Source of the DNA: a virus
Strand: one strand, 5' to 3'
Virus record (IMG/VR): IMGVR_UViG_3300045988_101705
Length of the DNA stretch: 34,706 nucleotides
Shown: positions 5,792-34,706 of the stretch, piece after piece
Layout: each line of letters starts with the position of its first letter
Numbering within the stretch: position 1 is the first letter of the stretch
The notes under the pieces: model-generated
The model's database searches: none
Told to the model about the DNA's origin: nothing
What the model saw: the letters and a program-made list of their open reading frames with translations, nothing else
Translations under genes and position numbers: made by a program

Positions 5792-6205
5792 ATGGCAAAG
5801 GAACGGACCACCGAAGCCCGCGGGCCTGAATATCTCGAATTTGGCGCCAATCTTACGAAGCTAAGAAAAGCGCGTGGCCTTTCTCAATCAGAGACGGCCG
5901 CCGCGCTCGGTATTACTCAAAGTACATACGCCGGTTGGGAAACCGGTACCCGCAAGGTGCAACTTTCCACCATGCTTCAACTATCAGAATATTTCGGTGT
6001 ATCTGTTGACGTTCTGATCGGTGTTCAAAAATTAACGGTTCCAACTACCGACGAACGCGCCTTCGACTTAAAGGAAAGTGAAAAGAACTTGATCTTGACC
6101 TTCCGGAAGCTAAACCGCGAAGGGAAGCAAAAACTTTGTGAACGTGCCGACGAACTTCTGGATCTCGGTTACATTCAAAAAGGGGACGCTGCAAAAATGG
6201 CATAA
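5792..6205 (+). CDS. CI-like XRE-family HTH repressor (137 aa)
   Basis: LRKARGLSQSETAAALGITQSTYAGWETG is a classic XRE HTH. SD AAAGGGGGTG. Located next to the integrase. Confidence 0.8.
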   Translation: MAKERTTEARGPEYLEFGANLTKLRKARGLSQSETAAALGITQSTYAGWETGTRKVQLSTMLQLSEYFGVSVDVLIGVQKLTVPTTDERAFDLKESEKNLILTFRKLNREGKQKLCERADELLDLGYIQKGDAAKMA

Positions 6206-8205: not shown

Positions 8206-8516
8206 CGAAAAAACGTACACAAACGCGGCTGAAATGTTCAAAAACCGGCGTTTTCCGTTTTATTGCAACGGTTAGGGGCGTGTAAGGTCCCCGGCTTTCA
8301 GTGGTGGATCTTTATTTGTGGCCGTAGTACAGAAACGCGGGTTTAACTCTCCCACGGCGCCCGGTTCACATTAAACCCGGCCGGAACCTGTCAAACAACA
8401 TTACAACGCCCCCGTTGCAACCCGTCAACATTTACAAGGGCTTCGGACCTTCGCACCGCCCGCGGGCCGGTGTGGCTGTTTTAATTGCCGGGCGGCCTGC
8501 TGCCGCCCTGTGGCTG

Positions 8517-8702
8517 TTATTGCACTTCTTGAACGCTCGTCGTGCTTACTGCTGTTGTATCTGTCCACCTTGCCTTCTTGTCTATCAGAAGAAGGCCGTT
8601 GTAATCTACGTCTATTACTTTGTACTTCTCGTTTTCATATATGACCGTTTTTCCGATCCACTGTTTTTTCAATTTCTCGATCCATTCTTTATATGTTCCC
8701 AT
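8517..8702 (-). CDS. Hypothetical protein (61 aa)
   Basis: ORF track entry, third gene of a small minus-strand operon. Confidence 0.5.
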   Translation of the reverse strand: MGTYKEWIEKLKKQWIGKTVIYENEKYKVIDVDYNGLLLIDKKARWTDTTAVSTTSVQEVQ

Positions 8703-8743
8703 GTTTTCACCCGCCGGGGACTGCTGCCCCGGCTCTCCTTTCT

Positions 8744-8992
8744 TTATGCGAATAATTCTTCCAGTTTTTCCCGCTTACCCTGTACCATGGCGCGGGCTGT
8801 TTTTATGTCAATCTGTCCGGCGGTAATCTTTACAACCTCTTCGGCTGCTGCTGTGAAAAGTCTGTATTCTTCTTTGTATGCTTCGTCGAAGGCCGCTTCC
8901 TTCTCTTCGTTTTCCGGATCCAGATCGTAGGCCTGATCTGCTGCGTTCGCTCTTTCCTCTGCTTCTCTTAATTTCTTTAATAACTCTTTCAT
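8744..8992 (-). CDS. Hypothetical helical acidic protein (82 aa)
   Basis: ORF track entry, second gene of the small operon. Confidence 0.5.
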   Translation of the reverse strand: MKELLKKLREAEERANAADQAYDLDPENEEKEAAFDEAYKEEYRLFTAAAEEVVKITAGQIDIKTARAMVQGKREKLEELFA

Positions 8993-9037
8993 GTTCTCTT
9001 TTCCTTCCCGCCGGGGCGTCGGCCCCGGCTTTATGTT

Positions 9038-9199
9038 TTACAGTGCGGTTTCGATAAACTCCGTCGCTGCCTTTATTGTTTTGAATGTGTGGAACTCCCG
9101 GAAGCCCCGGCCCTCTCTGATGTTTACATGATAAGCGCCGCGGGTTCCTTTCATTCTCTTTATTTCATATCCTTTAACTACCTTTACTACTTCGTACAT
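9038..9199 (-). CDS. Hypothetical small protein (53 aa)
   Basis: My own translation gives MYEVVKVVKGYEIKRMKGTRGAYHVNIREGRGFREFHTFKTIKAATEFIETAL. SD AAGGCGG. Sits directly downstream of a strong minus-strand promoter. Confidence 0.4.
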   Translation of the reverse strand: MYEVVKVVKGYEIKRMKGTRGAYHVNIREGRGFREFHTFKTIKAATEFIETAL

Positions 9200-9254
9200 A
9201 TCGTTACCGCCTTTCTAAGTGATTGTTTATTTTTATTTCCCTTTCGTTAATATT

Positions 9255-9283
9255 ATATTAGCATACGTTTATATAAATGTCAA
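9255..9283 (-). promoter_or_regulatory. Sigma-70-like promoter for the 9199..8517 operon
   Basis: TTGACA (9283..9278), 17-nt spacer, TAATAT (9260..9255), within an AT-rich region that carries TTAGCAT(A/T) repeats. Confidence 0.55.
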
Positions 9284-9381
9284 CACTTTTTATTAGCATT
9301 TATTTATATTTTTTTCGTTGACTTTAATATTTAATTAGTGTATGCTTATATTATAAAAATAATATGAAGGTGGTGTTCTCT

Positions 9382-9573
9382 ATGATGAAATATTATAAAC
9401 TCTTCGATCTGCTGACGCGTCGGAACATGAAGAAAACAGATCTTCTTCCTATAATCTCCGCGCCGACGCTTGCGAAGCTGTCAAAGGGTGAAACCGTCAA
9501 GACTGACGTTCTTTGTAAAATCTGCGATTTTCTGGACTGCCAGCCCGGCGACATAATGGAATATGAGAAATAA
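9382..9573 (+). CDS. Small XRE/YozG-like HTH regulator (63 aa)
   Basis: MMKYYKLFDLLTRRNMKKTDLLPIISAPTLAKLSKGETV... The SD GAAGGTGGTG favours ATG 9382 over 9364. Upstream TTGACT-17-TATGCT promoter. Confidence 0.6.
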   Translation: MMKYYKLFDLLTRRNMKKTDLLPIISAPTLAKLSKGETVKTDVLCKICDFLDCQPGDIMEYEK

Positions 9574-9576
9574 AAA

Positions 9577-9625
9577 AGATCCGGACCTGTAAGAAATTCT
9601 TACAAGTTCGGATCTTCATTTTTCC
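9577..9625. terminator. Long hairpin terminator between convergent genes
   Basis: agatccggacctgtaagaa / ttcttacaagttcggatct forms a stem of about 18 bp with 2 mismatches, followed by tcattttt. Confidence 0.6.
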
Positions 9626-9640
9626 TTTATTTATGCGGGT

Positions 9641-9844
9641 TTATACCGTCACGGGTTCAGGGTGCATTTGACACCCGAAGGTCCTTGAACACGCGGTCAA
9701 AGGGCGGCCCAGTTCTTCCGATTTCTCTTTTACATATTTTCTGCATTTCTTTATAAAATAATACTGTCTTTCCGGTTCTGTTGTCGGTGCCGGTCCGTTA
9801 ATATCTATCTTTTCCAGTTTCTTTTCTAATTCTTCATCAATCAT
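9641..9844 (-). CDS. miaB: Truncated 5' fragment of a miaB-like methylthiotransferase gene (67 aa), probable att-flanking replacement end
   Basis: ...ERQYYFIKKCRKYVKEKSEELGRPLTACSRTFGCQM carries the TFGCQMN N-terminal signature of MiaB/RimO-family enzymes. It then diverges (HPEPVTV) and stops. Confidence 0.5.
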   Translation of the reverse strand: MIDEELEKKLEKIDINGPAPTTEPERQYYFIKKCRKYVKEKSEELGRPLTACSRTFGCQMHPEPVTV

Positions 9845-9881
9845 TCTTTGTATTACCTTTCCGCATAATATAACAGATTTT

Positions 9882-9910
9882 ACTATACCACGGGCGGGGT
9901 GAAAAATCAA
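9882..9910 (-). promoter_or_regulatory. Promoter for the miaB-like fragment
   Basis: TTGATT (9910..9905), 17-nt spacer, TATAGT (9887..9882) with a TG extended -10. Confidence 0.5.
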
Positions 9911-9947
9911 TGAAGCGTAAATTTTCAGAAAATATTCGCAAACAATA

Positions 9948-9973
9948 AACCCCGCCTTTTATTGACGGGGTTT
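9948..9973 (-). terminator. Rho-independent terminator after the endolysin gene
   Basis: Minus strand reads AAACCCCGTCAATAAAAGGCGGGGTTT followed by ATTGTTT. Confidence 0.6.
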
Positions 9974-10038
9974 CGGTGATATATTTTCCTTTTTTCTTGA
10001 CTTTCAAGGGGTTTTCATGAACTGTCGATAGTTACGTT

Positions 10039-11847
10039 TTACGCTTTCTTTGCGTAGTCAAGGGAAACCCAACCGTTACGGCCTGCGGCGTAGGCTTTCA
10101 GTAAGCCCCATTTTGAAGCGCCGGGGCCTTCTGCTTCCTCTACGATTGTAAAGGCTCCCTTTCCTGTGTAGACGGGTTTTCCTTCTTTCTTCCAGTAGTC
10201 GAACGTTGTTCCCGGTCCTTTCCTGATACGAAGATCCGAAGTCGTCACGCTCACTTTGTATTCTGCAGCAACCGGCGCCGCCGGTGCTTCCGGGTAGATC
10301 CTGTTTCCGTCGTTGTCAAAGACATAATAACCGGCGTTTTGCTTTGCCAGTTCCACGGCGTTTTCTCTATCCTTAAAGGCTCCGATCTGGCTTGCCGCGT
10401 CCTTCCAGTCCTTTCTTACTCTGAAATAACCGGTTCCCACTGTGCTTGCCTTCTGTTCCGGTGTTGCCTTGAATGAAACATAGTCCGGAACGGCTGTTAT
10501 ATAGGCCGCTGCCCCGCCGTCGTTGATCTGGTACCATTTTTCATCTTTGGAAATTCCGGTAACTGTGAAGGCTGCGCCGTTTTTTACAACCTTCTTCACA
10601 TTTCCGGAAGTGAACGAAGGCGTTGTTCTCACGTTCAGGCCGTCGGATCCGGTATAAATTACCGTTACCGCACCAGAAAGCGCCTTCACGCCCTGCGCTC
10701 CCGTATCTGTAACCGCGGGCGATCCTGTAACTGAAATGTTACCGCCTGCCATGGATGCTTTTACGTCCTTTCTGAACTGATCCATTGTCAGGCCGTACTT
10801 TTTCCAAATATGCTCAACGTCTGCGTGGTTTGTGGCGTACCCGCGGGCGTGTCCTTCCGAATGGGAAAGAATAACGCCGTCTTTCTCCGGGTTCCACCCG
10901 AACTTCTGGCACAAATACGCGAAGTATTCCACGGCGTTTCTGTAATTTTTCAGAACAACCGCTTTCGTGTTGCTGCCGTCGGAAAGTTCGATCCACGACG
11001 CGCCGCCGGTATATTTAATCGTGGCCGGCTCTGTCATTTCTACGCCGATATGGGTATTATTACAACTTCCCTTCGGCCCGCTGCCGCCATGCCAGTTTCT
11101 AACGGCCGTTTTCTTTTCCGGATCGATCGGAAGTCCCACGTAAACTTCCCCGGTGTGCTGAATAACCGCGTGAACGCCGGCGCCGGCGTCTGCGCGGTTC
11201 TCGTTGTTAATTATGTTCATTGCTTTTTCGCAAGGGCAACCGATAGAATGAAGATAAGGGCCGATCGGTTTGATCGTGCGCCCGCCTGTCAAACACGGGC
11301 TTTTCTTCATGGTTGCGTCAATGATTTTAATATTCATATTCTGCCCCGCTTCCTGTGTGTCGTACTGCGTCAAGTTCCATTTTTCTATAATGGAACATAT
11401 TTTTGAAACGTAATTATTGTCCGTCGCATAGCCGCCGGCCTTTACGATCTGGATCGCTTTCTTGTAGTCTCTTTCGCCCACAAGTCCCACATATCGAAGG
11501 ACGCTTCCTTTCTTCGCTCCCGCTAAGTAATCGGAATGATCCTTGATACTTTCGGCCATGCTCTCATATTTTCGGAACGCTGCCGTTATTGTGTAGACTT
11601 CGCCGTTCGGCTTCTGTTCGTTCGTTTCCTTTGTGTAGGTCTGGCCGCCCCAATCGGACGGCCAGTTATTGTCGGAAAGTTCGGCTTTCATTCCGAAAAT
11701 ATTATTCGCGTTCACTGCAAGTTCTCTTGTGCCATACCCGCTTTCAAGTATTCCCTGCGCTGTCGTGAGACTTGCAAGGATCCCTGTTTTTTCCATATTG
11801 GCGCGGGCCTGCTCCCCTAACAGTGAAACAAATTCTTTTTTCGTCAT
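10039..11847 (-). CDS. Multidomain endolysin: N-acetylglucosaminidase + amidase_2 + SH3b-type wall-binding repeats (602 aa)
   Basis: AQGILESGYG...NIFGMK (glucosaminidase), HSIGCP...NTHIGVEMTEP (amidase_2/PGRP type), and C-terminal SH3-like repeats. Start at MTKKEF has an ATGA overlap with the holin stop. Confidence 0.8.
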   Translation of the reverse strand: MTKKEFVSLLGEQARANMEKTGILASLTTAQGILESGYGTRELAVNANNIFGMKAELSDNNWPSDWGGQTYTKETNEQKPNGEVYTITAAFRKYESMAESIKDHSDYLAGAKKGSVLRYVGLVGERDYKKAIQIVKAGGYATDNNYVSKICSIIEKWNLTQYDTQEAGQNMNIKIIDATMKKSPCLTGGRTIKPIGPYLHSIGCPCEKAMNIINNENRADAGAGVHAVIQHTGEVYVGLPIDPEKKTAVRNWHGGSGPKGSCNNTHIGVEMTEPATIKYTGGASWIELSDGSNTKAVVLKNYRNAVEYFAYLCQKFGWNPEKDGVILSHSEGHARGYATNHADVEHIWKKYGLTMDQFRKDVKASMAGGNISVTGSPAVTDTGAQGVKALSGAVTVIYTGSDGLNVRTTPSFTSGNVKKVVKNGAAFTVTGISKDEKWYQINDGGAAAYITAVPDYVSFKATPEQKASTVGTGYFRVRKDWKDAASQIGAFKDRENAVELAKQNAGYYVFDNDGNRIYPEAPAAPVAAEYKVSVTTSDLRIRKGPGTTFDYWKKEGKPVYTGKGAFTIVEEAEGPGASKWGLLKAYAAGRNGWVSLDYAKKA

Positions 11848-12332
11848 TTTGCCGCCCCTTCTTCCTGCGCTGCTACCTCTTCCAGTGTTTCCGGTTCTTC
11901 CGCTTCTTCGTCTGTCGGAAGTTCGTCTGTGTACTTCTGCAGAAATGCCTTTACAGTCTGCCAGATCTTCTTTACTGGAAGGCCGCAAAGATACATATTT
12001 TTCAAAATGCTTATGATCTCATAGGCCACAAAAAGGATCGCGAAGAACTCCATTGTTCCGATCCTGTCTACCGCCATTACTGCGCGCACTTCCTGCGGAA
12101 TGAAGCCGATCAGGTTCACCGCTACAATATGATCCACTGTAACCAGTGCAAGAAGGCAAACTAACATTCCGCATTTTCTGATCGCGCCGTTGATCCCGAA
12201 ATTAGAATTGAACCTTCTTTCCTTGATCGCGCGAAGAACTCCGAAAATCGTATCGATCACCACCGCGATCAATACTAACTGCAAAAATGTGTTTCCCGCT
12301 GCTTCCGCATAGATATGAATTAACTTTTCCAT
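11844..12332 (-). CDS. Holin (phage_holin_4/TcdE-like, 162 aa)
   Basis: Several TM segments, an acidic C-terminal tail, and a position immediately upstream of the endolysin. SD AAAGGTGGTG before ATG 12332. Confidence 0.75.
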   Translation of the reverse strand: MEKLIHIYAEAAGNTFLQLVLIAVVIDTIFGVLRAIKERRFNSNFGINGAIRKCGMLVCLLALVTVDHIVAVNLIGFIPQEVRAVMAVDRIGTMEFFAILFVAYEIISILKNMYLCGLPVKKIWQTVKAFLQKYTDELPTDEEAEEPETLEEVAAQEEGAAK

Positions 12333-12360: not shown

Positions 12361-12402
12361 TAATAAAAGGAAAGGGCGGCAATTTCTGACCTGTTTTCAG
12401 GC
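12361..12402 (-). promoter_or_regulatory. Candidate late promoter copy a (18-nt motif + 19 nt + TATTAT) upstream of the holin gene
   Basis: Minus strand reads CCTGAAAACAGGTCAGAA-ATTGCCGCCCTTTCCTTT-TATTAT. It shares motif and spacing with copies b and c. Confidence 0.5.
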
Positions 12403-13431
12403 CGTCGCCTTCCTTTCCTTGATTTCTTTTACTTTCTCCTTCGTTTCTTCAATCAGAATATAGCTGTCGGCGTGTTTCATGTGGCCGAACCTGCTTTCGA
12501 TCGAACGGTCGAAGTCTTCCAGTTCTACTTCCCCGGTGTCGAAGGCTTTTAATAATTTCTTTAGGCGCCGCATGGCGTCCTTTCTTACCCTCTTGTGATC
12601 TTTGAAATGAATATACCCTACGAAGTTTATTCCGTTCTTTGCTGCAAGGATCGTTGTCTTCGGGTTCAGTTCCAGTTTTAATTCCCGACGAAGAAATTCT
12701 TCTATCAGTTCCAGAACGTGCCGCAACTCTTCCGGATCCTCTGATAATATTATAAAGTCGTCCATATAGCGAACATAATATTTCATTTTCAGGACGTGTT
12801 TTACATATTGATCCAGTTTGTTCAAGTATACGTTCGCGAATAGCTGTGAAGTAAGGTTCCCGACTGGTATTCCCACACCCGGCGGGAAAATACCGTTGTG
12901 ATCTATGATCCGATCCAGAATTTTCAAAAGTGCTTTATCTGAAATATACCGCCGGATCTCTTTCTTTAATACGTCGTGCGCTACGCTCTGGAAATAGTGG
13001 TGTATATCTCCCTTTATTGCATAGATTTTCTTCCCCTGTACCACTTCCAGTTCATAAAGCCATTTTGAAAGGGTGTCGCTTGCTTCGTGCGCGCCCTTCC
13101 CTTTCCTGCAGGCGTATGAATGGAAAATGAACCGCTTTTCAAAAATCGGTTCAATGATATTTACGATCATGTGTTGAATTACACGATCGAAGAACGGAAG
13201 CGCCATAATAATTCTTTCTTTTGGCTCCCACACTTTGAAAATTCTATACTTTCCCGGCGTATAGTCACCGCTTTGTATGGCGTCTATTGCTTTTTGAAGG
13301 TTGTCTTCCCTGTTCTGCTCAAACTCCAACACTTCCGGGCGAAGTCTTTTACATTTCCGGGCCTTCATGTACGCTTTGATCGCGTTCGGGAAAGTACAGA
13401 TTTTACTTATTAAGTTTTTAATTGTTTTCAT
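12397..13431 (-). CDS. DGR reverse transcriptase
   Basis: IPVGNLTSQLFANVYL (the [LIV]GxxxSQ motif typical of DGR RTs) and the YVRYMDDFIIL YxDD box. Adjacent to TR and avd. The start could be 13431 or 13452. Confidence 0.9.
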   Translation of the reverse strand: MKTIKNLISKICTFPNAIKAYMKARKCKRLRPEVLEFEQNREDNLQKAIDAIQSGDYTPGKYRIFKVWEPKERIIMALPFFDRVIQHMIVNIIEPIFEKRFIFHSYACRKGKGAHEASDTLSKWLYELEVVQGKKIYAIKGDIHHYFQSVAHDVLKKEIRRYISDKALLKILDRIIDHNGIFPPGVGIPVGNLTSQLFANVYLNKLDQYVKHVLKMKYYVRYMDDFIILSEDPEELRHVLELIEEFLRRELKLELNPKTTILAAKNGINFVGYIHFKDHKRVRKDAMRRLKKLLKAFDTGEVELEDFDRSIESRFGHMKHADSYILIEETKEKVKEIKERKATA

Positions 13432-13623
13432 GTTTGCCCTACCGCATTTCACCCCATTTCAGGCCTACTTTTCGGCGGTGCCTTTGTTTTTTCGTCCGGC
13501 TTCTCTCCGGAACGGGAACGGCCTTCCGGCCGTCTGTGCAAACCGTCTGACTATATATTTTGATTATTCATATATAACCCTTGCCGTGGATCCGGAGATC
13601 GCGCGGTCTATGCGATTTTACAA

Positions 13624-13750
13624 GTCACACACGCACCACACGCCAATGTTGCCGTTGACGTTCCACGGGTAATTGTTGGCGTTGACCGCGCGCGAACCGT
13701 CGTGAACGCCGTTGTTCCAATTGCCGCCGCCAATGAGCGCGTGAAGTGCG
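13624..13750 (-). repeat. DGR template repeat (TR)
   Basis: 127 bp aligns with 14248-14374 at a constant offset of +624. There are 13 mismatches, 12 of them at plus-strand T (coding-strand A) of this copy. It is non-coding and lies between avd and the RT gene. Confidence 0.9.
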
Positions 13751-13774
13751 AATTAACGGTTGCCCCAAATTTTA

Positions 13775-14188
13775 TTATTTTCTCTTATTTTCTGCGATCG
13801 ACTTTATCAGGCCGCCGATCTGCGCGCCGATCGCTCCGGTCTGTTTGGCACAATAGAAATAGGCGTCTTTGTTCATGGCTGAATATCCCAGATCGTAAGC
13901 AAGCCGGATCTTTCGTACCAGTCGTCTTTTTAAGCGGTCGGCCGCGTACAAGTGACTTGCTACCTTTGTGATCTCAAACATTTCTATTTCGTCCAGTATT
14001 CCGTCGATACTTTCCCGAATATCCTTTTGCAGCGTGAATTTTTCATAGTGCGGAAATTTCTTCATTTTCTCATGAAGGTACACTGAAAAATCATAGGCCA
14101 TTTGGTGCGCTTCGGTGTGGGTGTAGTCCATTTGTGCGGTTTCCTCTTTCCCCTGCGTCGCGCTTTTACTTCTGCTTTGATATGCCAT
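13775..14188 (-). CDS. avd: Accessory variability determinant (Avd-like, 137 aa)
   Basis: Small, helical, basic protein in the canonical position between the target gene and TR. Sequence includes HQMAYDFSVYLHEKMKKFPHYEKFTLQKDIRESIDGILDEI. Confidence 0.75.
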   Translation of the reverse strand: MAYQSRSKSATQGKEETAQMDYTHTEAHQMAYDFSVYLHEKMKKFPHYEKFTLQKDIRESIDGILDEIEMFEITKVASHLYAADRLKRRLVRKIRLAYDLGYSAMNKDAYFYCAKQTGAIGAQIGGLIKSIAENKRK

Positions 14189-14209
14189 GTTCTATTCTCC
14201 CGGAAAATA

Positions 14210-14232
14210 GGGGCTGCCCTTTCGGGCGCCCC
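14210..14232 (-). promoter_or_regulatory. GC-rich hairpin with a GAAA tetraloop just 3' of VR (DGR target-recognition-type hairpin and/or terminator)
   Basis: Minus strand reads GGGGCGCCC-GAAA-GGGCAGCCCC: 9 bp with one bulged A. It sits 16 nt beyond the VR end and 7 nt beyond the stop codon. Confidence 0.6.
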
Positions 14233-14238
14233 TTCTGC

Positions 14239-15351
14239 TTACTGCGCGTCACACACGCACCACACGCCAATGTTGCCGTGGACGCTCCACGGGTAAACGG
14301 TGGCGCCGACCGCGCGCGAACCGTCGCGACCGCCGTGGTTCCAATGGCCGCCGCCAAGGAGCGCGCGAAGTGCGGTATTTGACGGAATATAGGCGTCACC
14401 ATAGCCCGCGCCCAGTACGTCGTACCAGTTCCACGCGGAAGCCGTAGGATCCAGACAAAATTCATCAAGCCACTTCCAAACGTTACCCACCAGATCGCGG
14501 ATATTAAGCGCCGAAATAGCGTTCGCAACATATCCCGTTTTCTGGCGTCCAGTGTTTCCGGTTGCGCTCCATGCGTAGGTGTTGTTTGCGTCCTGACCTT
14601 CCGGGGATCCTGCTGCCGCCTGACAAAATTCTGCATAGGTCGGAAGTCTCTTTCCTACGCGGCGGGCTTTCTCGTTTGCAATATACCAGTTCAGGCCTTC
14701 CGTTCCGGTGATCGGGTTCGCGTTATACTTCGACTGCAGGCCCTGACTTCCATTGTCGGAAGAAAGGTAAATATCGCCCCACAATCCATTCCCAAGGTAA
14801 ACCATGCCGGAAGGATCGTCGCACTTCGGGCGGTGCTTTGTGGTCCATACGCTGTTCGGAATAATTCCGTTGTATACGTTGCCCTGCCAACCGCTGCCGT
14901 TTTCTGTTCCGCTGCTGTTGATCGGGTTTCCAAGTGCGTTCACATAGCGACACTTTCCATAATGGAAACCACCGATCTTTCTGCTGTTGTCTGCTGTGTA
15001 CCCGGAAGGGTAAGTGGAATTTTTAGAAATTACAAAAACTTCGTCGCGGTCCACGGTGTCGGATCCGTTGGTCGGATCGCAACAATAAATATAATAGTCC
15101 GTTCCCATTTCAAACCCGGAACCAGTGTCAAGGTTTGCCGTTGTAAGGTTTGTTAATACGGTTTTGAATACAGAAGAACCGACGGCGATCAGGACGCCGG
15201 CCGCGATCGTGATCTGGTTCGGTGTGGCTGCTCCCGCTGCTGTGATATACTGCGCCTTCTGTGATACAATGTCGCTCATGGCTGACAGTTTTTCCGTGGT
15301 GATCTTTGCCTTCGTGTTCATCATTGTTTCATCATAAAGAAAAAATTTCAT
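14239..15351 (-). CDS. DGR target protein, tail-module receptor-binding candidate with FGE-sulfatase/C-type-lectin-like C-terminus (370 aa)
   Basis: C-terminal VR, a GNVWKWLDE motif (GNVWEW-type, FGE/CLec fold) and a position after the fibre genes. SD AAAGGAGAAAAACAC before ATG 15351. Confidence 0.8.
   Translation of the reverse strand: MKFFLYDETMMNTKAKITTEKLSAMSDIVSQKAQYITAAGAATPNQITIAAGVLIAVGSSVFKTVLTNLTTANLDTGSGFEMGTDYYIYCCDPTNGSDTVDRDEVFVISKNSTYPSGYTADNSRKIGGFHYGKCRYVNALGNPINSSGTENGSGWQGNVYNGIIPNSVWTTKHRPKCDDPSGMVYLGNGLWGDIYLSSDNGSQGLQSKYNANPITGTEGLNWYIANEKARRVGKRLPTYAEFCQAAAGSPEGQDANNTYAWSATGNTGRQKTGYVANAISALNIRDLVGNVWKWLDEFCLDPTASAWNWYDVLGAGYGDAYIPSNTALRALLGGGHWNHGGRDGSRAVGATVYPWSVHGNIGVWCVCDAQ
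14248..14374 (-). repeat. DGR variable repeat (VR)
   Basis: Cognate of TR. Encodes the last 42 codons (ALRALLGGGHWNHGGRDGSRAVGATVYPWSVHGNIGVWCVCD) before the final AQ-stop of the target protein. Confidence 0.9.
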
Positions 15352-17938: not shown

Positions 17939-18811
17939 TCACACCCCCAGATAACGGAACCTGTAAGAAACGGTAACGTTCAGGTAATCTTCGCCGGCGT
18001 CTGCCGTATATCGGATCGTGTTTGTTCCATGCTGCAACTGTATAAAGTCGCTGTCTTCGTCCAGATACTCGTTGATCTCCTGTTTTACGCCGTCCCTTAC
18101 AAGGTACACCGCTTTGTTATTTGTTTCTGTGGTAATAATCACCACGTCGCCGGCATTGATAGAAAAGGATCTGACTTCGTTTCCGATCTTGATAAATTCG
18201 CCGCTTTCTGCATGATATACGGCCGGGTTTATTACCGGTCCTTCCGCTTCCAGTGTGACGGTTATTCCGATATTGTCCGCAGCGCTGTCGTTCTCGATCT
18301 CTTTCAATACTTCGGCCGTTCTTTCCGCGAACGGCTCTTTCTCTTCCAGAAATTCGTGTGGCCATTCAAAAAGGCCCGTCCAACTTGCCATAGATACGGA
18401 AATATCTTCAAGATCCCGGAAGAACGGATCCGGGCAAAGAAGGGAAATACTGAAATTTCTAACCACTCCCGCTTCGTCAATGTCGATCCCTTCCACTTTG
18501 TAGTCAATCACGCGGGTTTCGTTGCCTTCTATGTAGGTGAAAAGGCCGGTTGACTTCGGTTTGAAGCATTTGTAAAGTAGATCCCTGTTTGCCTGATAGT
18601 CTCGTTCCATTTGTGCCGTTATTACAATGTTTCTTTGTTTTGTTGTGCTTCCCTGATACGTGGAACCGTCCACCATGGTATTTTCCGACGTTACAACGTT
18701 ATTCGACACCGTGTAAATACCGTCTACCGATACAAGGAAGAACGGTTCAAAGGAATAGTTAAATTCCACTTGAACCCCGTCTTCATTCTTGCAAATAATT
18801 CTTTTCGCCAT
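17939..18811 (-). CDS. Distal tail protein (Dit-like, 290 aa)
   Basis: Position immediately downstream of the tape measure gene, and size. Confidence 0.6.
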   Translation of the reverse strand: MAKRIICKNEDGVQVEFNYSFEPFFLVSVDGIYTVSNNVVTSENTMVDGSTYQGSTTKQRNIVITAQMERDYQANRDLLYKCFKPKSTGLFTYIEGNETRVIDYKVEGIDIDEAGVVRNFSISLLCPDPFFRDLEDISVSMASWTGLFEWPHEFLEEKEPFAERTAEVLKEIENDSAADNIGITVTLEAEGPVINPAVYHAESGEFIKIGNEVRSFSINAGDVVIITTETNNKAVYLVRDGVKQEINEYLDEDSDFIQLQHGTNTIRYTADAGEDYLNVTVSYRFRYLGV

Positions 18812-18814
18812 TTA

Positions 18815-21706
18815 TCAACCCCCCTGTAACTGTAAAACCATGTTTCGGGTTGCGTTTCGTGTCTGGCGGGCTGTCTCATACGGCGAAAGGGCCTTCGGGC
18901 TTGTAATGTTGACATTCTGAACAAAACTTTTCCCGCCGCCTTCTGCTGTTTCAAGTGCCGTATTCCTTGCCGAAGCCGTAAGCGGTGTTACAACCGCTTC
19001 GCCGTTCACCATCTGGATCAACTCCGGGCCTGCTTCTGCCATAATGGCTTGACCGTTTTTCAAAACGCCGCCCTTTGCCAGACGCGGAAGTGATACTTCG
19101 CCAACGTGTCCGATACTTACGCCCGGAATATCGTTGATAACGTCGATCGCGCCGTTAATGAAGCTGATCGCCTTATTCACCGCACGTTCTGCGGTTGCAA
19201 GGGCGTTGTTCATGGCTGACTTGAAGGCGCCGCCGATTGCTTCACCGATATTTGTTCCGACATTTGTAAAAATGCCCTTGATCGTGTTCCAGATCCCCGA
19301 AAAGAAGGATCCAATATTGCTAAACACGTTTTTAATATTCGTGTATGCTTCCGTGAATTTTGTGTAAAACCATGATCCAACCGTTGAAAATACGGACTTA
19401 ATATCTGTGTATCTATCGTTGAACCACTGGCCGATCGCGGAAAATACGTTTTTCACGTTCGTATAGGCATTTTGAAACATGGTTTGAAACCACGTCGCCA
19501 CGGTTGACAGGGCGTTTTTAATGTCCGTCCACCTGGCCGCGAACCACTGGCCGATCCCCGAAAAGATCGTTGTTATTGCCGTGTAGGCTGCGCGGAACTT
19601 GTCCGCAAACCACGCGCCGACGCCCGAAAAGATCGAAACAATCCCGGACCATATATCAGAGAAAATTTTCTTCACATTGACGCCGAACGTCTGAAAGAAT
19701 GTGATTATATAATTCACTACCGCCGTTATAAGATTTTTCACAATCTCAATCAGGTTTTTCAGTGCTGCTTCTATGTACTGGCTGAACCCGTCCAGATCGC
19801 CCCGGAATAGTGCCATAAATGCGCTAATAATGTTACTTACAAAGTCGATCGCATTTTTCACCGCTGAAACGATCGGCGCTACTGCTGAAAGTGCGCCCTG
19901 TATCACCGCCATAACGTAGGTCGTGAAAAACTGGAATACAGGCTTCAATTTTTCCATTAAATTTTTGAAACTTTCGCCCAACTGCTGCAAGATCGGTTTT
20001 ATTTTCTCGATTGTTTCCGAAACGCTCTTTTTAATCTCTGCGAAGGCTTTATCTACCATTTCGCGGAACCAGTCGCACTTCTTATACATCAATACGAAGC
20101 CCGCCACAAGCGCCACCACGGCCGCGACAACGGCCCCGATCGGGTTTGCTGATAAAATAGCCCACAAGCCTTTCCCGGCCGTTCCTGCCGCCTTGAATAC
20201 GCCCGATATTTTAGAAAATGCCCCGATCGCCTTCGATACTCCCGAAGAAAGTTTCCCGAAAATAATTAAAGCCGGCCCGATCGCTGCCACTACCGCGCCA
20301 ATCTTTACGATCGTTTCCTTCTGCGTGTCGTTCAGGTTCTTAAACCACTGTGAAAAGGCTTTTACCTTTTTCACCACGCGTTCCAGAGCTGGCGTTGCTG
20401 TCTGCATTAAGGTATTTCCAAGATCTGCGCCTGCTACTTTCAAATTGTTAAGCGCAACTTTTGCCTGATCTGGCGGATCCAGTGTCGCGTTGAATGTGTC
20501 TTCGACTACGTTTCCGTAATCTGATAAGGCGCCGGAAAGATCGTCGATAGAAAGGCGGCCTTCCCTGATCGCCTGCGTCATTTCTGCGGCGCCCTTCTTT
20601 CCGAATAACTCCGTCGCTGCCTGCAGTGCGTCTGTTTCGCTGCTTGCGTTTTTGATCTTCTCGATCGTTTCGCCCAGTGCGTCTTTTAGATCCTTTCCGT
20701 CCGCTGTCGCGTTCTGCTGCGCCTTCTTCAATCCTGCAAGCGCTGTTGTGGCGTCCACGCCGTTCGCTTCAAACTGTGCAAGTAAATTTACCGAAGACGT
20801 GAGATCAAGGCCCATTTCCTTTAATGTGGCGCCGTTGGTCTGTAATGTATTCTGCAGCGTGTCCATGGAAATTCCCGTGTCTTGCCCTGCTTTTGTAAGA
20901 AGGCCCAACACTTCGCCGGTGTGGCTGCTGTCAACGCCGAATTTCGTCATTATGGCGTCTACGCTGTCGATCGCGCCGTTTAAGTCCGTTCCGTTGATCT
21001 CTGAAAACTGAATGAATTTTGAAGAAAGGTCTTCAAGTTCTTTTCCGGTAGAACCGAAGCGGGTGTTTACCTCTCCGATCGCAATTCCGGCCGTTTCCGC
21101 TTCTGTTGGAAGCGAAGTAAAAACGGCGTCCATACTGTCTTGTAAGCCGTCCAACGCTTCCCCAGAAGCGCCCGTTTTTGTTATGATCGTATCGTAACCG
21201 GCGTCTAATTCATTAAATGCCGCGATCGAAGCGGTCCCGATCCCTGCGATCGCTCCTGTCACTGGAAGAAGTTTCTTTCCCAGTGCTTCGGACTTTTCGC
21301 CAATCTTTCCGGCGATCTCTCCCACCTTTTCAAGTGTTGAATTGCTGTCCTCTGCTGCCGTTTTCAGGTTTTTCAGGTCTGCTTCTGTCTTTACGATCTC
21401 TCTTTGCAAAGCCCGGTACTGTTCTTCCGACACTTCGCCGTTTTCAAACTGCTTCTGAACCTGTGCTTCTGCCGACTTCAAAACGTCCAGTTTTTCAGAA
21501 GTAGCGGCCACGGCTTCTTTTAGAAGCGTCTGTTTCTGTGCCAGAAGTTCCGTATTTTTCGGATCCAGTTTCAGGCCTTTTTCGACTTCTTTTAATTCTT
21601 TCTGCAGATCGCGCGACTGTTTATTGACGCCCGAAAGGGCTTTATCTAACTTCGTAGTGTCGCCGCCGATCTCAATGGTAATTCCTTTTATTGTGCTTGC
21701 TGCCAC
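18815..21706 (-). CDS. Tail tape measure protein (963 aa)
   Basis: Largest ORF, with a coiled-coil N-terminus, TM-like central block and repeated FSxIGxWF units. GTG start. Confidence 0.9.
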   Translation of the reverse strand: MAASTIKGITIEIGGDTTKLDKALSGVNKQSRDLQKELKEVEKGLKLDPKNTELLAQKQTLLKEAVAATSEKLDVLKSAEAQVQKQFENGEVSEEQYRALQREIVKTEADLKNLKTAAEDSNSTLEKVGEIAGKIGEKSEALGKKLLPVTGAIAGIGTASIAAFNELDAGYDTIITKTGASGEALDGLQDSMDAVFTSLPTEAETAGIAIGEVNTRFGSTGKELEDLSSKFIQFSEINGTDLNGAIDSVDAIMTKFGVDSSHTGEVLGLLTKAGQDTGISMDTLQNTLQTNGATLKEMGLDLTSSVNLLAQFEANGVDATTALAGLKKAQQNATADGKDLKDALGETIEKIKNASSETDALQAATELFGKKGAAEMTQAIREGRLSIDDLSGALSDYGNVVEDTFNATLDPPDQAKVALNNLKVAGADLGNTLMQTATPALERVVKKVKAFSQWFKNLNDTQKETIVKIGAVVAAIGPALIIFGKLSSGVSKAIGAFSKISGVFKAAGTAGKGLWAILSANPIGAVVAAVVALVAGFVLMYKKCDWFREMVDKAFAEIKKSVSETIEKIKPILQQLGESFKNLMEKLKPVFQFFTTYVMAVIQGALSAVAPIVSAVKNAIDFVSNIISAFMALFRGDLDGFSQYIEAALKNLIEIVKNLITAVVNYIITFFQTFGVNVKKIFSDIWSGIVSIFSGVGAWFADKFRAAYTAITTIFSGIGQWFAARWTDIKNALSTVATWFQTMFQNAYTNVKNVFSAIGQWFNDRYTDIKSVFSTVGSWFYTKFTEAYTNIKNVFSNIGSFFSGIWNTIKGIFTNVGTNIGEAIGGAFKSAMNNALATAERAVNKAISFINGAIDVINDIPGVSIGHVGEVSLPRLAKGGVLKNGQAIMAEAGPELIQMVNGEAVVTPLTASARNTALETAEGGGKSFVQNVNITSPKALSPYETARQTRNATRNMVLQLQGG

Positions 21707-21709
21707 CTG

Positions 21710-22317
21710 CTATTCACCGCCCCTTCGTTTGAACTTCTCGCGAATGGCCTTTCGGTCCGGTTCTGTTTGTGAAATTCGCCAACAATTTTCAAGGTATTTT
21801 CTGCCTTCCTTTGTCTGGTTCATTTCGTGAATAAACGCTTCGCGCATGAAGAAAAGGTATAGATCAAGGTCCAGTTCTTGCACCTGCCATATATTCAAAC
21901 CGGTGTAGTCAATCACCAGTTTTTCGCCGCGTGTGAGTGTTTTATAATACACCCCTTCGTTATCCCCGCCGGGATAGAAGGGGATCTTTAGTTTGGGTTA
22001 TTCTTTACGCCGCCCGCGAACTCCATGTAAGCGTCGATCAGCGCTTCCATTTCCTCGGTGTCGTAATCGTCCGTGATCTCTTTCGTCGTCACCTGCTCCC
22101 CGGTCATATTGTGGGAAAGAATTTCGGCGCAAAGGCCGCCCAGTGTGTCCATGGCGTCTTCTGCCGTCATGCTGTCCGTGTCCATTTCCTGCAGCGCTGA
22201 CAGTTTTTCAAACGTCTTTTTCATAGGCATTTTCACGATCAGTTTTCTATTGTCTTTCAGTGTTACGGTCATGAATGAACGCTTCACCTTGTTAAAATCA
22301 AAGCTTAAATTCGCCAC
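21710..22317 (-). CDS. Tail assembly chaperone G-T fusion made by -1 programmed frameshift
   Basis: The -1 frame is open from 21997 through the 21710..21952 ORF. The slip site C_CCA_AAC lies directly before the G stop codon. Confidence 0.7.
21988..22317 (-). CDS. Tail assembly chaperone G (109 aa)
   Basis: Position between the major tail and tape measure genes. Ends just after the slippery heptamer. Confidence 0.75.
   Translation of the reverse strand: MANLSFDFNKVKRSFMTVTLKDNRKLIVKMPMKKTFEKLSALQEMDTDSMTAEDAMDTLGGLCAEILSHNMTGEQVTTKEITDDYDTEEMEALIDAYMEFAGGVKNNPN
21991..21997 (-). promoter_or_regulatory. -1 frameshift slippery heptamer CCCAAAC
   Basis: X_XXY_YYZ pattern in the G frame (CCA AAC), followed directly by TAA. 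Confidence 0.7.
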
Positions 22318-22384
22318 GCTAATTTCTCCTTTCTACTAAATAACGGCAAGGCGTACCCGCCGCCCTGCCGTTATGGTTTTGCTT

Positions 22385-22936
22385 TTATACTGCTGCTGCT
22401 TCGCTCTCTGTCATTTCCTCTTCGTACATAAGAAGGGTTCCTTCTTCGTCCATAGGAAGGGCTGTGATCTCTTCGTCCACAACGGTTTCTTTGTCTTTCT
22501 CGAAAGATATTGTAAAGCCCGCCTGATTGTTTCCGACGATCATTACCCAAATATCGCCGTCCACCGCGTCTTTGTGGTGAAGACAAATAACATAGCGCGC
22601 GCCCTGTCTGTTGTCGATACCACCGATCTTTACAGTGCGGCGTTTCTTCGCCTTGTCTTCTGTAACTCTGGCGGTGTCGCAAAGGTATTTGAACTTGTTC
22701 CCGTCAAAGGTCATAATTCCCGTTTTCAGGGTTACTTCCTCTTCTGTTACGATCGTTTTGCTCTTCTTTCCAGTGTCGTCCTTTGCGGTGTAGAAAGAAG
22801 GTTTGTATTCCACGGACGCGCCGCCGGAAATATAGGCCATTAAATTTTCAGGCTTGCAAATATCTGCAGTCACCGGAACGGTCGAACCGTCGAAGGCCTG
22901 AATATACACATCAGCGCTTCCAAGAATTATTCTTTC
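22385..22936 (-). CDS. Major tail protein (183 aa)
   Basis: Position upstream of the chaperones. Start MERIILGSADVYIQ preceded by GAAAGGAGAACAGAGC. Confidence 0.7.
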   Translation of the reverse strand, partial: ERIILGSADVYIQAFDGSTVPVTADICKPENLMAYISGGASVEYKPSFYTAKDDTGKKSKTIVTEEEVTLKTGIMTFDGNKFKYLCDTARVTEDKAKKRRTVKIGGIDNRQGARYVICLHHKDAVDGDIWVMIVGNNQAGFTISFEKDKETVVDEEITALPMDEEGTLLMYEEEMTESEAAAV

Positions 22937-34499: not shown

Positions 34500-34706
34500 A
34501 ATTCACCCCGCCTTTCTGTCTCTGATAAGCATTGATCCACGGCCCGAAGGTCTATACTGCTAATAATGCCTTTCCGGGCCATGGCTGCGGTTTGTATCGC
34601 TTCCACGGCCAGATCAAGGGCTGTTTTATAAATGCCTGTTAATTCTTCGTGCAGTGCTTCCGGATCGTGGTTTTCTTTCACGCCGATCCAGAAATTATTC
34701 ATTAAA
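34496..34706 (-). CDS. 3' part of the wrap-around gene that starts at 277 (34588..34706 duplicates 1..119)
   Basis: Same reading frame across the circular junction. Stop TGA at 34496-34498. Confidence 0.6.
   Translation of the reverse strand, partial: LMNNFWIGVKENHDPEALHEELTGIYKTALDLAVEAIQTAAMARKGIISSIDLRAVDQCLSETERRGEL
34588..34706. repeat. Terminal overlap copy 2 (identical to 1..119)
   Basis: Same as copy 1. Confidence 0.95.

Follow-up and report, generated by a model that had tools for sequence, protein, structure and literature searches.

A phage-borne copy of the miaB 5' end at the probable attachment site of a large serine-integrase phage of Lachnospiraceae

The stretch of DNA analysed here (hereafter the window; IMG/VR record IMGVR_UViG_3300045988_101705, 34,706 nt) begins and ends with an identical 119-bp direct repeat (1-119 and 34588-34706), which indicates that it is a complete phage genome of 34,587 bp, assembled as a circle and in the free-phage (attP) arrangement. 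The features around the locus of interest follow one another in the order lysin, terminator, promoter, a copy of the 5' end of miaB, and integrase (Table 1). The phage appears to be a temperate virus of siphovirus type with a Lachnospiraceae host, probably Roseburia or a close relative. Searches of a cultured-phage collection and of deposited phage genomes gave no nucleotide match to the window and only five weak protein matches, to unannotated faecal contigs. The integrase has the resolvase catalytic domain, the recombinase domain and the zinc ribbon that define a large serine integrase, and its end lies 1,436 bp from the ORF that holds the miaB fragment. This agrees with the original prediction, made from the letters alone, which had placed the fragment at the lysin end of the genome and 1.4 kb from a serine integrase. 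In a lysogen, the rebuilt miaB would adjoin the genome end marked by the endolysin.

Table 1. Features of the miaB locus and its surroundings in the window
Feature	Position	Strand	Remarks
Large serine integrase, 593 aa	6424..8205	+	Convergent with the miaB fragment; Resolvase 3e-35, Recombinase 7.5e-19, Zn_ribbon_recom 4e-9
Hairpin with 30-nt arms, putative bidirectional terminator	9566..9626	.	Between the HTH gene (9364-9573, +) and the miaB fragment (-)
Conserved phage-side motif TAAACCCGCATAAATAAAGGA	9623..9643	-	Includes the stop codon; identical or near-identical in L111, L112, L274 and L275, partly in L009
Approximate attP, ~50 bp around the break	9640..9695	.	From junction comparisons; extent inferred
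Phage-specific tail HPEPVTV and stop	9641..9664	-	Beyond the homology break; putative phage-side arm of attP
miaB 5' copy, 60 codons (MIDEELEK...TFGCQM)	9665..9844	-	82% BLASTP identity, E=5e-35, to L031 MiaB residues 1-60
Predicted sigma-70-type promoter of the miaB 5' copy	9882..9910	-	TTGATT 9910-9905, 17-nt spacer with TG, TATAGT 9887-9882
Intrinsic terminator after the lysin gene	9947..9973	-	Predicted; would insulate the fragment promoter from lysis-gene transcription
Endolysin, 649 aa (glucosaminidase + amidase_2 + SH3)	10039..11988	-	Domain search
DGR reverse transcriptase	12397-13452	-	
DGR template repeat	13624-13750		
DGR Avd-like ORF	13775-14188	-	
DGR variable repeat	14248-14374		3' end of a 370-aa ORF (14239-15351, -)

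The ORF can be read on the minus strand as 67 aa from an ATG at 9844 or as 89 aa from a TTG at 9910, with its stop codon at 9643-9641. The ATG is the real start, because homologues begin there and the TTG overlaps the promoter. The earlier reading of a 67-aa ORF in this place, ending in HPEPVTV, was confirmed by translation (MIDEELEKKLEKIDINGPAPTTEPERQYYFIKKCRKYVKEKSEELGRPLTACSRTFGCQM-HPEPVTV, then the stop). The conserved part is a leader of the Lachnospiraceae MiaB type followed by the beginning of the MiaB core as far as its first conserved Cys. The MiaB assignment, first made from the family motif, has a measured basis: residues 2-61 of the fragment match residues 1-60 of a 494-aa Roseburia protein at 82% identity (BLASTP, E=5e-35). 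For that protein, from the Roseburia sp. MAG locus L031, the score on TIGR01574, the equivalog model for MiaB, the tRNA i6A37 methylthiotransferase, is 525 bits, where the cut-off is 355 bits. A second match, to Hominiventricola MiaB, has 70% identity (E=2e-26), and by sequence homology the fragment belongs to a bona fide MiaB. Searched alone against Pfam and NCBIfam it gave no match, because its overlap with the family models is only ~7 residues; in full-length relatives TIGR01574 starts at residue 53-57, at TFGCQMN. The window ORF is without the complete UPF0004, radical SAM and TRAM architecture, ending 7 residues past ...GCQM, and the three domains are complete only in the attR chimeras of relatives described below. 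It is a 5' fragment and not an enzyme.

The DNA comparison places the end of the homology precisely. A blastn match to the Roseburia miaB locus covers 9665-9890 of the window, that is, part of the promoter, the 5' UTR and the 60 codons, and its last base, 9665, is the G of the ATG in ...FGCQM (CAAATG occupies 9670-9665). A break right after CAAATG (9665-9670) had been predicted, and a homology search of 9641-9910 had been proposed as the check; in that search Roseburia miaB aligns to 9665 and then diverges. A protein search with the window ORF returned 230 matches with E down to 6e-37, among which the window's exact protein is absent and the best match has 96% identity. The best 120 of the 230 are all short (48-118 aa), and many come from contigs of ~34 kb. 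The block TG(T/C)CA(G/A)ATG is common to 68 truncated and 82 full-length versions, and the two classes diverge directly after it. All 82 full-length genes continue with AAY GCN MGN GAY (N-A-R-D), whereas the 68 truncated forms run into tails of 3-12 codons that are unrelated to MiaB, with the Asn codon lost in 25 of them. Frameshifts and premature stops are absent from all 68 short forms and from the attR forms. Two database entries for 'short MiaB' proteins (P0058 and P0117) are frameshifted genes and not att junctions, a one-base shift turning ...EADFVI into ...GRFCNL, and a truncated MiaB call is not always the mark of a prophage.

The fragment had also been credited with its own promoter, TTGATT-17-TGgTATAGT, which was predicted again here at 9910-9882. 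As a single call this is weak, with 5 sites found against 1.9 expected in the region. Its position is kept across lineages, however: of the 14 phage-supplied copies examined, 10 have a promoter matching at 10-11 of 12 bases, placed 214-228 nt upstream of the junction. The window's version is also found in L111, L112 and L031, at 217-219 nt from the junction, and other lineages have TTGAAA-17-TATAAT.

Related loci show the same gene end in several contexts. Most of the 80 matches in species-representative genomes are full-length, uninterrupted miaB genes with conserved host genes upstream. Wherever the locus of a truncated copy extends far enough, a homologous serine integrase (54-85% identity) follows closely downstream, encoded on the opposite strand; from the other direction, 44 of 61 related integrase loci in IMG/VR (about 54-85% identity) have a miaB fragment alongside, and integrase homologues beside a miaB fragment also occur in L001, L048, L274 and L275. 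The free-phage order of lysin, promoter, fragment and integrase is found in the window and in L111, L112, L274, L275, L276, L006-L008 and L009. Integrase-side (attL) junctions, in which host genes and the host's own 5' stump are followed by a phage tail and the integrase, were read in L001, where the stump follows mutL-miaA on a 370-kb contig, in L048, where it follows the usual host neighbours, and in L172 and L140. Lysin-side (attR) junctions were read in L003, L012, L031 and L082; here phage tail and lysis genes, with a lysin directly upstream in each case, lead into a promoter and a 5' copy in frame with a full-length MiaB, and host genes follow (mutS in L012, ruvA-ruvB in L031). The rebuilt attR proteins are 488-503 aa long, and all that were tested pass TIGR01574 with 525-542 bits. 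A single host stump is found with three different phage tails and integrase types (L023, L024 and L027), and several phage lineages therefore use the site. L114 and L022 were considered as phage copies identical to the host copy in L037, and were left unused: the contig ends inside the fragment, which may be an attL.

Further evidence comes from pairs of loci that represent the substrate and the product of one recombination. Across such pairs, identity between attP and attR is 97-99% as far as ...CAGATGAA(C/T), past which the two sequences part. The phage loci L275 and L276 match the Roseburia sp. MAG locus L031 at 98.8-99.6% identity over up to 2,461 nt; the match stops 4 nt past the ATG (at ATGAATG), where L031 continues as an intact 494-aa MiaB. 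This pair is close to the window: the L275 integrase is the nearest relative of the window's (84.9% aa identity), and the prophage tail genes of L031, which together with an amidase precede its miaB, have 77% nt identity to window 18404-22906. In a second pair, the phage loci L006 and L008 and the lysogen L012 are ~99% identical through the lysin, a small HTH gene, the promoter and the fragment to ...TGTCAGATGAAC, past which the phages read PVIENY and stop while the lysogen reads ARDSEKL.... A third case has both prophage ends on one contig, ~51.6 kb apart, in IMGVR_UViG_643886116_000001, an identifier with the form of a genome record. One end (L172) holds the host stump and the integrase, and the other (L003) holds a GH25 lysin and a phage-type 5' copy fused to a 503-aa MiaB. 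The L172 and L003 copies have only 59% nt identity in the last 150 nt, and the L140 and L012 copies, on two contigs of one genome record, have 68%; the phage copy is therefore not simply the host's own.

These relatives (L275/L031, L006/L012, and L172 with L003) thus show attP x attB giving attL and attR, with exchange at a short core. The junctions were what the original prediction had asked for, and in them related serine-integrase prophages are flanked by two miaB halves, as expected for insertion inside the gene. The evidence for that comes from close relatives and not from a lysogen of the window phage; an IMG/VR motif scan and a protein search found no lysogen of this phage or of one more than 90% identical to it. 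That the phage supplies a replacement 5' end is likewise seen in the relatives, where attP and attR agree up to the break and MiaB at attR is full-length.

On the evidence of these relatives, it is very likely that the window phage integrates in host miaB by means of its serine integrase and that the phage-borne 5' end rebuilds the gene. The attP site would lie at the 3' end of the phage-borne promoter, leader and first 60 codons, and attB would lie in host miaB at the F-G-C-Q-M-N codons, where the conserved MiaB core starts. Recombination of the two by the large serine integrase would create attR at the lysin end, with the phage promoter and 5' copy in frame with the host's remaining ~430 codons to give a full-length MiaB, and attL at the integrase end, where the host promoter and 5' stump would be closed after 3-12 phage-encoded residues. 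In the window phage the HPEPVTV tail with its stop would serve that purpose. The phage carries a duplicate of all that lies upstream of the crossover, so that the gene would be rebuilt at the lysin end. We infer from the sequences that the window phage itself would integrate in this way, that the phage promoter would fire in the lysogen, and that the chimeric MiaB would be active.

The position of the crossover can be narrowed by comparing junctions. They put it in ...TGTCARATG(A), and the core shared by attP x attB junctions in relatives is ...TGTCAGATG(A). The block common to attP and host genes is TTCGGGTGTCAAATG (9679-9665), and on this comparison the crossover must lie in it or next to it; the core had been predicted near 9655-9675, a range that includes the homology break at 9665. 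When 46 phage-type and 80 host-type sites were scanned for dyad symmetry, two centres competed, both of them weak, and the candidate crossover dinucleotides would be 9668-9667 (A-A, at the CAA/ATG boundary, the R-A step) or 9673-9672 (TG, in the Cys codon). Inverted repeats found by hand (GGGTG/CACCC and ACCG/CGGT) gave inconsistent centres and were discarded as a guide. Polymorphisms between attL and attR in L003/L004/L172 and in L140/L136 did not narrow the position further. The Cys of GCQMN, which we take to be the first ligand of the N-terminal iron-sulfur cluster of MiaB, would explain the invariant nucleotides and hence a dependable landing site.

One base in this block sets the window apart. 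The Gln codon of ...GCQM (9668-9670) is CAA in the window, L111, L112 and L274. The 82 full-length miaB genes sampled have CAG without exception, as do 64 of the 68 truncated copies. Neighbouring wobble positions vary freely. If the CAA/CAG base lies in the crossover dinucleotide, the natural host would carry an allele unseen in this sample. No miaB gene with CAAATG was found in IMG/VR, and 101 loci with it were found in metagenomes, none with a window-like N-terminus or leader. On the phage side, the motif TAAACCCGCATAAATAAAGGA is a candidate outer attP arm or accessory-protein site. Its carriers for which integrases were measured (L112, L274, L275 and L009) have integrases 68-85% identical to the window's, and the sequence between the motif and the core is variable. 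A scan of IMG/VR with this phage-side motif gave no match to a window-like attL or attP.

We asked of the copy how far it is maintained as coding sequence, with dN/dS computed over its last 48 codons. For the window copy the ratio is 0 against L111 (dS 0.11), 0.10 against L031 and 0.09 against L112 (dS 1.75), and the medians are 0.22 for phage-linked copies and 0.19 for native genes. The phage copy thus appears to be under purifying selection, with dN/dS about 0.1, and intact reading frames, family scores and dN/dS together suggest that miaB stays functional after integration. The low dN/dS could in part reflect repeated re-copying of host genes rather than selection on the phage copy. With selection or copying alike, the module reaching a new host would be an intact 5' end with its promoter.

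A separate observation concerns the phage locus L009 (~5906-6174) and L035 (~9912-10180), the uninterrupted miaB of Hominisplanchenecus faecis CLA-AA-H246, which are ~95% identical over exactly 268 nt. This module comprises the promoter, the 5' UTR and the 60 codons, and the flanks are unrelated on both sides; a match limited to the module points to recent copying between phage and host. Next to the core, the left arm of attP and the host arm are identical in 30 of 30 bases in this pair. It is conceivable, though on balance unlikely, that the phage's arm of attP is a live copy of its host counterpart, with exchange between the two still going on. Were that so, attP would equal attL and attB would equal attR on that side, a departure from the canonical rule by which large serine integrases tell sites apart; these integrases would need either to take site identity and directionality from the opposite half-site alone, or to catalyse a reaction that is reversible by nature and requires no directionality factor. 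The promoter and leader of miaB in gut Lachnospiraceae would then be rewritten through cycles of integration, gene conversion and loss by homologous recombination. In same-genome pairs, by comparison, the arms differ beyond position -18, and the puzzle of identical arms may therefore dissolve; gene conversion, prophage loss by homologous recombination or assembly collapse may explain it.

Other explanations of the fragment have to be weighed against integration with rebuilding of miaB. The module looks host-derived, promoter included, as the 268-nt match of L009 and L035 illustrates, and serine integrases need only about 50 bp of attP; it could thus be a passive scar, host DNA acquired by imprecise excision and kept because its last ~25 bp form an attP arm, with the rebuilding of miaB incidental and without selective value. 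We hold this to be improbable, since ~245 bp of promoter, 5' UTR and 60 codons have been kept in phages whose integrases have diverged to 54% identity, the position of the promoter is conserved, the short and attR forms are free of frameshifts and stops, and dN/dS is ~0.1-0.2 with dS up to more than 1. A reading in which the fragment is not phage-borne, the window being a prophage circularised by the assembler and the ORF the host's truncated 5' stump (attL), draws on the fact that an assembly graph closes into a loop where near-identical direct repeats longer than the k-mer flank a prophage. An overlap like the 119-bp terminal one is typical of assemblers, and more than 100 nt can be the same in phage and host copies. 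Such a collapse is highly improbable here: the fragment is contiguous with both lysin and integrase, and is so again in six independent contigs (L111, L112, L274, L275, L276 and L009). Moreover, the lysin-end copy differs from the host stump in both lysogen genomes in which the two can be compared (L003/L172 and L012/L140), and these phages therefore carry a copy of their own.

The 67-aa product might instead act alone, for example as a MiaB-leader decoy that disturbs the enzyme of the infected host or the partners of that enzyme, as its predicted promoter, its ribosome-binding site and its conserved sequence would allow. This is barely credible, as the conserved part ends exactly where the host homology ends, the tails beyond are unrelated between lineages, every attR fuses the copy in frame to miaB, and the Pfam and NCBIfam searches give no independent fold. 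Integration into miaB with repair of the gene by the phage-borne 5' end remains the reading that we prefer.

Read in this way, the system has several known counterparts. Phage 21 and e14 integrate in icd, where attP holds a copy of the displaced gene end and the target survives integration. In such tRNA-gene and 3'-end integrators, which use tyrosine integrases, a 3' end is replaced and no promoter is needed; here a 5' end is replaced, so that a promoter and a translation start must be supplied. Serine-integrase prophages are better known for splitting a gene, as A118 does in comK. SPbeta in spsM and skin in sigK are further cases (PMC4191935, PMC5025042). The miaB phages share with all three an attB inside conserved coding sequence and an attP adjoining the integrase gene. 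In those systems, though, the gene is inactive in the lysogen and restored by excision, as a regulatory switch, whereas attR here keeps a full-length MiaB. Active lysogeny, in which the target is inactive while the element is integrated, does not describe these prophages, whose attR MiaB passes the equivalog cut-off.

The closest parallel is the group of prophages and islands with dusA-specific integrases, which insert in the 5' end of a tRNA-modification gene and bring a replacement; Farrugia et al. (2015, PMC4482086) reason from the sequences that the enzyme is left intact. The relatives of the window phage share with them the 5'-end insertion and the in-frame replacement supplied by the element. 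The dusA islands have tyrosine integrases and occur in Proteobacteria, while here large serine integrases of Lachnospiraceae phages target miaB, and what replaces the 5' end is a copy of 60 codons, clearly homologous to the host's and equipped with a promoter of its own. The miaB system is thus an analogue of the dusA islands and not a member, because the window integrase is a serine recombinase rather than a tyrosine integrase of the dusA-island type. According to the same study few tRNA-modification genes are known as targets; rimO (MiaB-like), mnmE and rluA are named, and miaB is not (PMC4482086). According to a catalogue of large serine recombinases (Durrant et al. 2022, PMC10083194), a single conserved target gene is often common to distantly related integrases, and that pattern recurs here with miaB. 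The catalogue treats target genes as disrupted, whereas miaB is rebuilt, and the text and eight supplement files searched contain no mention of MiaB, UPF0004 or methylthiotransferase (PMC10083194). Full-text literature searches found no report of miaB as a prophage or serine-integrase site. The principle is therefore known from the dusA islands, and for the target gene miaB and the serine-integrase type we found no published report.

The phages described here form a large, previously undescribed clade of human-gut Lachnospiraceae phages, represented by dozens of metagenomic contigs and several genomes. A single attachment site, in a part of miaB that is highly conserved, serves their serine integrases, and the gene is preserved. 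With these phages, miaB would join the few tRNA-modification genes in which phages are known to land, and they would clearly exemplify repair of the target, in place of splitting, by a phage with a serine integrase. Roseburia and its relatives are hard to engineer, and an integrase and attP with a natural attB conserved across genera are a possible tool for non-disruptive integration in them. The fragment may also be usable as a host-assignment marker for these phages, because it tracks the host's own miaB leader.

Some further features of the window lie close to the attachment site. A 1.4-kb insert (8206-9640) separates the integrase from attP and has no counterpart in L112 and L275, the closest relatives. 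Within it are small minus-strand ORFs (8517-8702, 8744-8992 and 9038-9199) and the HTH_26 gene at 9364-9573 (+). The HTH gene and a 53-aa ORF of the insert recur at 82-91% identity beside a 61%-identical integrase in L023 and L027, and the insert therefore looks like a mobile cassette. In the sister phage L275, HicA/HicB toxin-antitoxin genes adjoin the integrase (L275:4487-6173). Beside the lysis genes the window has a complete diversity-generating retroelement (DGR; 12397-15351), whose template and variable repeats differ at 13 positions, 12 of them at template adenines; the DGR reverse transcriptase is also present in the relatives L021, L111 and L274.
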